Origin: Alphaproteobacteria bacterium
Lineage (GTDB): Bacteria > Pseudomonadota > Alphaproteobacteria > RF32 > CAG-239
DNA: 64,000 nucleotides
Reading direction: 5' to 3'
NCBI GenBank assembly: GCA_044432975.1
Contig: JAWXUC010000002.1
Location: 24,573-88,572, forward strand
Positions 25,678-25,812 of the stretch are shown piece by piece. The notes beneath the pieces were generated by a model that was not told the origin of the DNA, did not search any database, and worked only from the letters and a program-made list of their open reading frames with translations. A program made the translations under genes and the position numbers. How positions within the stretch are numbered: the first letter of the stretch is position 1; each line of letters starts with the position of its first letter.

Positions 25678-25812
25678 TGATTTTGTGTTTTATAATAATT
25701 TGTAGGGAATGGTCTTGACCATTCCTTTAAAATTTTAGCCATATTATACAAGGAACAGTCAAGACTGTTCCCTACAAGAGATATGTAATCAAATAATTTT
25801 GCGTTTGCTATA
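25678..25812. repeat. roughly 130-bp REPIN-like element, copy 1
   Basis: Two GTAG-headed hairpins in inverted orientation (ttGTAGggaatggtcttgaccattcc at 25700-25725 and ggaacagtcaagactgttccCTACaa at 25752-25777) with conserved flanks. Near-identical to 49805-49932. Confidence 0.6.

Follow-up and report, generated by a model that had tools for sequence, protein, structure and literature searches.

Why does the same sequence of about 130 bp occur twice, at unrelated sites, within a short stretch of an AT-rich alphaproteobacterial genome? The two copies lie in the window (the whole 64-kb stretch of DNA analysed here, with a GC content of 31.5%) at 25683-25812 and 49806-49932, and each holds two hairpins headed by GTAG. 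A RAYT transposase is thought to copy pairs of GTAG hairpins around bacterial genomes, and the original prediction had read the sequence as a REPIN-like element of this kind, with a structured small RNA gene as an alternative. Our analysis makes it likely that each locus is a non-autonomous, GTAG-tagged REP doublet (a BIME, REPIN or 'HH dimer') mobilised by a RAYT of subclass 2.4.

Anatomy and setting of the two copies

The alignment of the copies covers 130 nt of the first and 127 nt of the second and shows about 96% identity; 2 nt are substituted, and a further 3 nt fall in 2 short indels. It breaks off abruptly on both sides, and the surroundings are unrelated. A larger segmental duplication is ruled out by these sharp edges; near-identical copies over 130 nt at non-homologous sites are what one would expect of REPINs and BIMEs. 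Both copies were located where they had been predicted, except that copy 2 starts at 49806 and copy 1 at 25683 rather than 25678; the 'TGATT' beginning at 25678 aligns to copy 2 only via a 2-nt gap. The order is the same in each copy: a left flank, GTAG and a hairpin on the + strand, a spacer of 24-26 nt, an inverted hairpin with CTAC, and a right flank.

25683..25701, + strand: left flank of copy 1, TTGTGTTTTATAATAATTT; the same letters stand in copy 2 at 49806-49824, and upstream the similarity ends
25702..25725, + strand: REP of copy 1, GTAG head followed by GGAATGGTC-TT-GACCATTCC; pattern match, ssDNA fold of -7.1 kcal/mol
25726..25751, no strand: spacer of copy 1, 26 nt, AT-rich; 1 substitution and a 2-nt indel relative to the spacer of copy 2
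25752..25775, - strand: iREP of copy 1, GTAGGGAACAGTCTTGACTGTTCC on the - strand; pattern match, ssDNA fold
25776..25812, + strand: right flank of copy 1, AAGAGATATGTAATCAAATAATTTTGCGTTTGCTATA; 1 substitution and a 1-nt indel relative to copy 2, the similarity ending past GCTATA
49806..49824, + strand: left flank of copy 2, from the alignment of the copies
49825..49848, + strand: REP of copy 2 (GTAG head and hairpin), pattern match
49849..49872, no strand: spacer of copy 2, 24 nt, from the alignment of the copies
49873..49896, - strand: iREP of copy 2, pattern match
49897..49932, + strand: right flank of copy 2, 36 nt, from the alignment of the copies

The arms of each doublet are 20-nt perfect palindromes, headed by GTAG and inverted with their heads outward. 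On the + strand, GTAGGGAATGGTCTTGACCATTCC begins at 25702 and 49825, and GTAGGGAACAGTCTTGACTGTTCC is read from the - strand at 25752-25775 and 49873-49896; the four inverted, GTAG-headed hairpins are exactly as originally quoted for both loci. All four are GTAG-headed palindromes, the form expected of GTAG REPs, whose palindromes measure 20-50 nt, and a degenerate hairpin pattern matched 4 times in the window against 0 times in 100 shuffles. Two base pairs distinguish the stems, each with a compensating change (TG:CA against CA:TG), which bears out the predicted compensatory changes and is the kind of stem upkeep seen in GTAG REPs. Folded as ssDNA, the 24-mer leaves GTAG as four unpaired bases next to an 8-bp stem with a 4-nt loop (-7.1 kcal/mol), and the whole unit is predicted to form one long hairpin on either strand. 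Inverted REPs with a short spacer (26 and 24 nt) and a predicted long hairpin are the arrangement by which REPINs and BIMEs are recognised. The conserved flank, put at about 25 bp per side in the original prediction, measures about 19 nt on the left and about 37 nt on the right, with the ends of the unit being provisional, as they rest on two copies.

As predicted, copy 1 lies between galE and dxs and copy 2 between a HAD gene and trmB. Both gene pairs are convergent (galE> <dxs and HAD> <trmB; the HAD gene was named by Pfam and the others carry their NCBI names), so that both copies occupy an extragenic site between convergent genes, which agrees with the report that REPs typically sit between convergent or co-directional ORFs (PMC3733652). 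The added flanking sequence, taken from Logan contigs, encodes LptF/LptG and an RND efflux adaptor, so the host is an outer-membrane organism rather than a Clostridium. The junctions between the flanking genes and the element were reproduced at 100% identity in independent Logan assemblies from several runs; the element is therefore not an assembly chimera. Three of the six Logan contigs examined (L121, L122 and L123) end inside the element, at 25784, 49877 and 49894, and the other three stop short of it. We set these ends aside as a sign of many copies, since the two window copies or the hairpin itself could explain the breaks.

The window contains other repeats as well. A second family, CGTCATTGCGAGCGAAGCGTGGCAATCCA, occurs at 30631-30673, 30786-30828, 39415-39457 and 45498-45540; its units are of the 'CGTC-tagged' REP type and carry a CCA tail, a form reported mainly from Alphaproteobacteria (PMC3733652). 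A third family, CGTCATTGCGGACTTGATCCGCAATCCA, occurs at 45373-45401, 47911-48055 and 52160-52188, the middle locus being a tandem array in which about 3.5 units follow one another head to tail every 41 nt. Other GC-rich GTAG hairpins with distinct stems, such as GTAGGGGACGCATTGCATGCGTCCC and GTAGGGGAGAACTGCGTTCTCCC, were seen at 7553-7577, 8043-8067, 15288-15310, 45275-45300 (-) and 45645-45667 (-), so that the 64 kb hold at least five types of GTAG REP, each in few copies. The region 45270-45670 is a dense mosaic of GC-rich GTAG and CGTC hairpins, with a 68-nt direct repeat at 45294 and 45442, and resembles a cluster of BIME type or a graveyard of inserted REPs. With these further GTAG- and CGTC-headed REP-like repeats, the host genome is generally REP-rich. 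Unrelated to the REP families is an AT-rich 38-nt inverted repeat (45800-45837 and 45909-45946), 97% complementary and with 71 nt between its arms. A 138-nt tandem duplication of 93% identity lies at 29200-29475, within a 927-aa ORF (27800-30583).

The hairpin family in other genomes

The hairpin GTAGGGAAYRGTCTTGACYRTTCC belongs to a real repeat family. Scanning genome assemblies, one genome per species, with the pattern GTAGGGAANNGTCTTGACNNTTCC returned at least 120 loci, and 55 viral contigs in IMG/VR carry the hairpin too (L127-L181). Nearly all of the at least 120 loci are from Clostridia, mainly Oscillospiraceae, Ruminococcus, Gemmiger and Acutalibacteraceae; the matches listed also include Chakrabartyella piscis, as a complete genome, and a single Chloroflexi MAG. 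Most of the viral contigs represent one orthologous locus of a prophage-like group, the hairpin lying at the same orthologous site in about 40 contigs of 53-61% GC. One or two copies also occur on each of a few phage contigs of 37-38% GC that are unrelated to this group (L135, L141 and L150). None of the hairpin-bearing IMG/VR contigs encodes a RAYT gene. Classical REPINs are lineage-specific and vertically inherited. Such lineage specificity was not found for this hairpin, as the identical 24-mer occurs in Clostridia, a Chloroflexi MAG, the alphaproteobacterial MAG and viral contigs, and this counts against the REPIN reading. The element is mildly unusual in two respects: an AT-rich alphaproteobacterium has the exact hairpin in common with Clostridia, a Chloroflexi MAG and prophage-like contigs, and the two window copies have matching flanks outside their hairpins.

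Covariation across copies, which had been proposed as a check, was observed. At the two free stem pairs, 152 of the 163 exact matches are Watson-Crick, as CG:CG (115), CA:TG (15), TG:CA (14) or GG:CC (8). When mismatches were allowed, fully compensated variants appeared at five or more stem positions, e.g. GGAACGCTC/GAGCGTTCC and GGATGGGTC/GACCCATCC. The GTAG head is present on 186 of 200 hairpins, a count in which the exact matches had GTAG by design of the pattern and the mismatch-tolerant partner hairpins alone form the independent test. Where hairpins lie close together, head-out inverted doublets dominate, with 45 such pairs (gaps of 19-88 nt) against 6, 6 and 5 in the other arrangements. 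A favoured doublet is characteristic of REPINs and BIMEs, and both window copies have this arrangement. The arms are non-identical in 33 of the 39 doublets outside the window, as they are within it. Across genomes it is the 24-nt hairpins that are conserved; spacers and flanks vary freely.

At seven loci in Ruminococcus and related MAGs (L020, L034, L037, L053, L064, L083 and L087), this REP doublet is centred in a conserved composite element of about 330 nt, whose ends are inverted runs of CGGAAT/CGTAAT-type heptamers. The composite may be a larger MITE-like unit. A left flank common to the window unit and the Ruminococcus doublets was considered and is unproven, as the latter sit in this different composite of about 330 nt and the right flanks mismatch.

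These conservation data bear on whether the repeat acts as RNA, either as a 3' UTR stem-loop (for mRNA protection, transcription pausing or termination) or as an independent small RNA gene. Both copies stand downstream of two converging genes, the RNA folds are strong on either strand (-40.6 and -39.4 kcal/mol, z of about -6 to -7), and REPs are known stabilisers of mRNA 3' ends (PMC3733652, PMC8266576). The same folding, however, shows no strand preference. Searching Rfam at the gathering threshold for the window and at an E-value threshold for the locus gave no known RNA family, the weak, sub-threshold matches being miRNA-like, generic long hairpins. Downstream of the hairpins there is no T-tract and upstream no conserved promoter, promoter-like sites occurring at the level of shuffled sequence. 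The preservation of only the 24-nt hairpins across genomes fits a DNA recognition site rather than a small RNA. We therefore consider an RNA-level role as the explanation of the repeat to be improbable, and the small RNA gene offered in the original prediction is not supported: it has no Rfam family and no framing pair of promoter and terminator, and outside the host genome only the hairpins are conserved. A passive 3'-UTR effect is possible and would be compatible with a REP doublet. For annotation, both loci should be marked as REP/REPIN-type repeats and not as small RNA genes or regulatory sites.

RAYT-type genes and the proposed movement of the doublet

A RAYT homologue or its remnant is present at 6 of the at least 120 loci, and the contigs of three further RAYT homologues were also looked up. 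RAYT-type genes were found to contain the same 24-mer in frame, where it encodes VGNGLDRS and ERSRPFPT flanking the HUH motif. The reverse-complement hairpin, GGAACGGTCAAGACCGTTCCCTAC, is in frame in L006, L103, L182 and L184 and gives ERSRPFPT 14-23 residues past the HUH motif. The position of the forward hairpin varies: in L184 it is in the N-terminal part of the gene, encoding VGNGLDRS near residue 38, in L006 and L103 it is just upstream of the RAYT start codon, and in L182 it is at the 3' end of the RAYT gene. L184 carries a perfect inverted pair, 27 nt long, at nt 84 and 256 of its gene, and in L006, L103 and L182 the iREP is at gene nt 262-281. Two more distant members (L186 and L025) have other hairpin sequences at the same two gene positions. 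We dropped the idea that REPs within RAYT genes are a novelty, as they have already been described for TnpAREP subclass 2.4 (PMC6006769).

The proteins of the hairpin-carrying genes score 68-69 bits with NF047646 (REP_Tyr_transpos), below the curated cut-off of 80, and 22.1, 20.8 and 17.7 bits with Pfam Y1_Tnp (PF01797), just under the threshold of 23. Their sole PDB match is E. coli TnpAREP, 4ER8. Among the 120 best homologues (median length 160 aa), NHIH is present in 94, WQ in 118 and YIxxNP in 110; ERSRPFPT is exact in 81 and VGNGLD[RH]S is found in 22, both counts being inflated by a search index that favours shared words. The published signature of subclass 2.4 (PMC6006769) combines NH[IFV]H, WQ and YIxNNP with 'double foot' REPs and with the insertion of a REP into tnpAREP; the proteins are roughly 150-200 aa long. 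By these published motifs the linked genes appear to be of the TnpAREP subclass 2.4 (RAYT group 4) type, an assignment in which motifs and length agree, while the scores below the NCBIfam and Pfam cut-offs count against the reading.

Collapsed 'double-foot' palindromes of the form GTAG...CTAC were seen six times (L014, L116 and four more), and such REPs arise by deletion between the parts of an inverted dimer (PMC6006769). In L014 (3469-3703) and L116 (6499-6890), RAYT genes have decayed by deletion exactly between two internal hairpins, and what remains is a single 'double-foot' palindrome, GTAGGGAACGGTCTTGACCGTTCCCTAC. Intact RAYT genes are single among housekeeping genes, as in valS-RAYT-folC, recG-RAYT and pckA-RAYT. 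Three MAGs (CAMBNE01, JAEZDF01 and JBJEPR01) have a hairpin-type RAYT gene together with dispersed hairpin copies or doublets. At the two window copies a collapsed remnant of a RAYT gene was rejected, as tblastn and a profile HMM built from 120 sequences found none in or around them.

These linked proteins are also informative on whether the unit is instead an IS200/IS605 miniature (PATE) moved by a classical TnpA, its flanks being sub-terminal sequence between the hairpins and distant cleavage sites. The asymmetric flanks of 19 and 37 nt do resemble the ends of IS200/IS605 elements, which are cleaved at a distance from the hairpin foot (PMC6006769), and the two hairpins are non-identical, like left and right IS ends. 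Yet GTAG directly at the hairpin foot is the hallmark of REP/RAYT systems (PMC8266576), all the hairpin-linked proteins are RAYT-type (NF047646, 4ER8, WQ, YIxxNP) and not IS200-type, and neither tnpA nor tnpB was found near the hairpin in any locus examined. A miniature of the IS200/IS605 kind is thus very improbable.

We searched the host sequence for the enzyme itself. In agreement with the original prediction, tblastn and a profile HMM on all six frames found no RAYT in the window, and no homologue was present in about 16 kb of flanking Logan sequence (L187 and L190), which brings the total covered to about 80 kb. The extra 16 kb contained no third copy of the 130-bp unit, leaving four hairpins, i.e. 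two doublets, in about 80 kb of host sequence. Two metagenome scans, one for the exact window-type doublet and one for the iREP with its right flank, gave 0 matches each, and blastn of the 130-bp unit against plasmids returned nothing. A hairpin with a variant loop, GTAGGGAACGGCGTCCTAGACGTTCC, was seen some 8.3 kb to the left of where the window begins, within the 3' end of the gene for the exonuclease VII large subunit (L190, 575-601). Classical REP families number tens to hundreds of copies per genome. In about 80 kb we saw two copies and found no RAYT, and both points count against the REPIN reading.

These results invite the view that the repeat is a decayed, immobile relic, a doublet acquired horizontally or left behind by a lost RAYT, and copied in this genome by a host process such as gene conversion, template switching or recombination instead of by a RAYT. 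Besides the missing RAYT and the two copies, the flanks kept beyond the hairpins suggest copying of a larger piece, and a foreign origin is suggested by finding the identical 24-mer in Clostridia, a Chloroflexi MAG and prophage-like contigs; genomes with REPs but without tnpAREP have been reported (PMC6006769). Against this, about 96% identity between copies in unrelated surroundings speaks for recent copying, neither hairpin has lost its perfect palindrome or its GTAG head, and a RAYT is usually single-copy, so that its absence from about 80 kb says little. An immobile relic is accordingly unlikely in our judgement, although it deserves to be kept in mind.

The evidence for a RAYT-mobilised REP doublet comes from several sides. 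The element fits the published definition (PMC8266576, PMC3733652) in its GTAG head, its perfect palindrome, the head-out orientation of the pair and the short spacer, the hairpin forms a family with covariation and an excess of doublets, and the 24-mer is tied to RAYT-type genes in other genomes. By analogy with studied enzymes, a RAYT/TnpAREP, which is a HUH single-strand Y1 nuclease-transposase, would recognise the doublet by binding the folded hairpin and the GTAG 'guide' on ssDNA. It would then cleave nearby (between C and T in the studied enzymes) and rejoin the strands, and the unit would thereby be copied to new intergenic sites. The cognate enzyme would probably be of the TnpAREP subclass 2.4 (RAYT group 4) type, given that such genes elsewhere carry exactly this hairpin. 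That a RAYT moved the element in the host genome, and is or formerly was present there, we infer, together with the cleavage sites and any secondary role at mRNA 3' ends.

That the likeness of the two copies extends past the GTAG heads, asymmetrically and by about 19 and 37 nt, is not predicted by the simple REPIN model and counts against the REPIN reading. TnpAREP in vitro cuts between C and T near the REP and occasionally at distant sites (PMC8266576), and such occasional distant cuts could account for the larger copied unit. In a bolder version, which we advance tentatively and think rather doubtful, the exact GTAGGGAAYRGTCTTGACYRTTCC across phyla and prophage-like contigs would mark a subclass 2.4 system that is spreading now, possibly by phage, with a 130-bp unit in this host and cuts 19 and 37 nt outside the hairpins. 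If true, this cross-phylum spread would run counter to the idea of an almost exclusively vertical inheritance of REPIN-RAYT systems. The hairpin is a convenient test case for the horizontal movement of REP/RAYT systems and for where the enzyme cuts.

Comparison with known systems

The closest parallels in form are the REPINs and BIMEs of Pseudomonas and E. coli (PMC3116915, PMC3333891), which likewise consist of inverted GTAG-headed palindromes with a short spacer at intergenic sites, have the doublet as their dominant arrangement and have a RAYT as presumed mobiliser. The dimorphic arms of the window doublet resemble the Y and Z2 units of E. coli BIMEs. The window element differs from these systems in the two copies seen and the lack of a RAYT in about 80 kb, in the 19 and 37 nt that its copies have in common beyond the heads, in its AT-rich host, and in a hairpin that is common to other phyla.

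The 'HH dimers' of the GTAG superfamily (PMC3733652) share with it a GTAG at one end of the stem-loop, facing outward in dimers 20-100 bp apart, as well as convergent or co-directional sites, compensatory stems and the presence of CGTC-tagged REPs in the same genome; this likeness is one of described anatomy. Firmicutes are absent from the phyla listed for GTAG repeats (PMC3733652).

The subclass 2.4 REPtrons (PMC6006769) have been described mainly from Cyanobacteria and Bacteroidetes, whereas the carriers found here are mostly gut Clostridia and a Chloroflexi MAG, and the window has the non-autonomous doublet only. The hairpin-carrying genes of the other genomes nevertheless resemble these REPtrons in having NH[IFV]H, WQ and YIxNNP, and the likeness extends to the collapsed 'double-foot' dimers.
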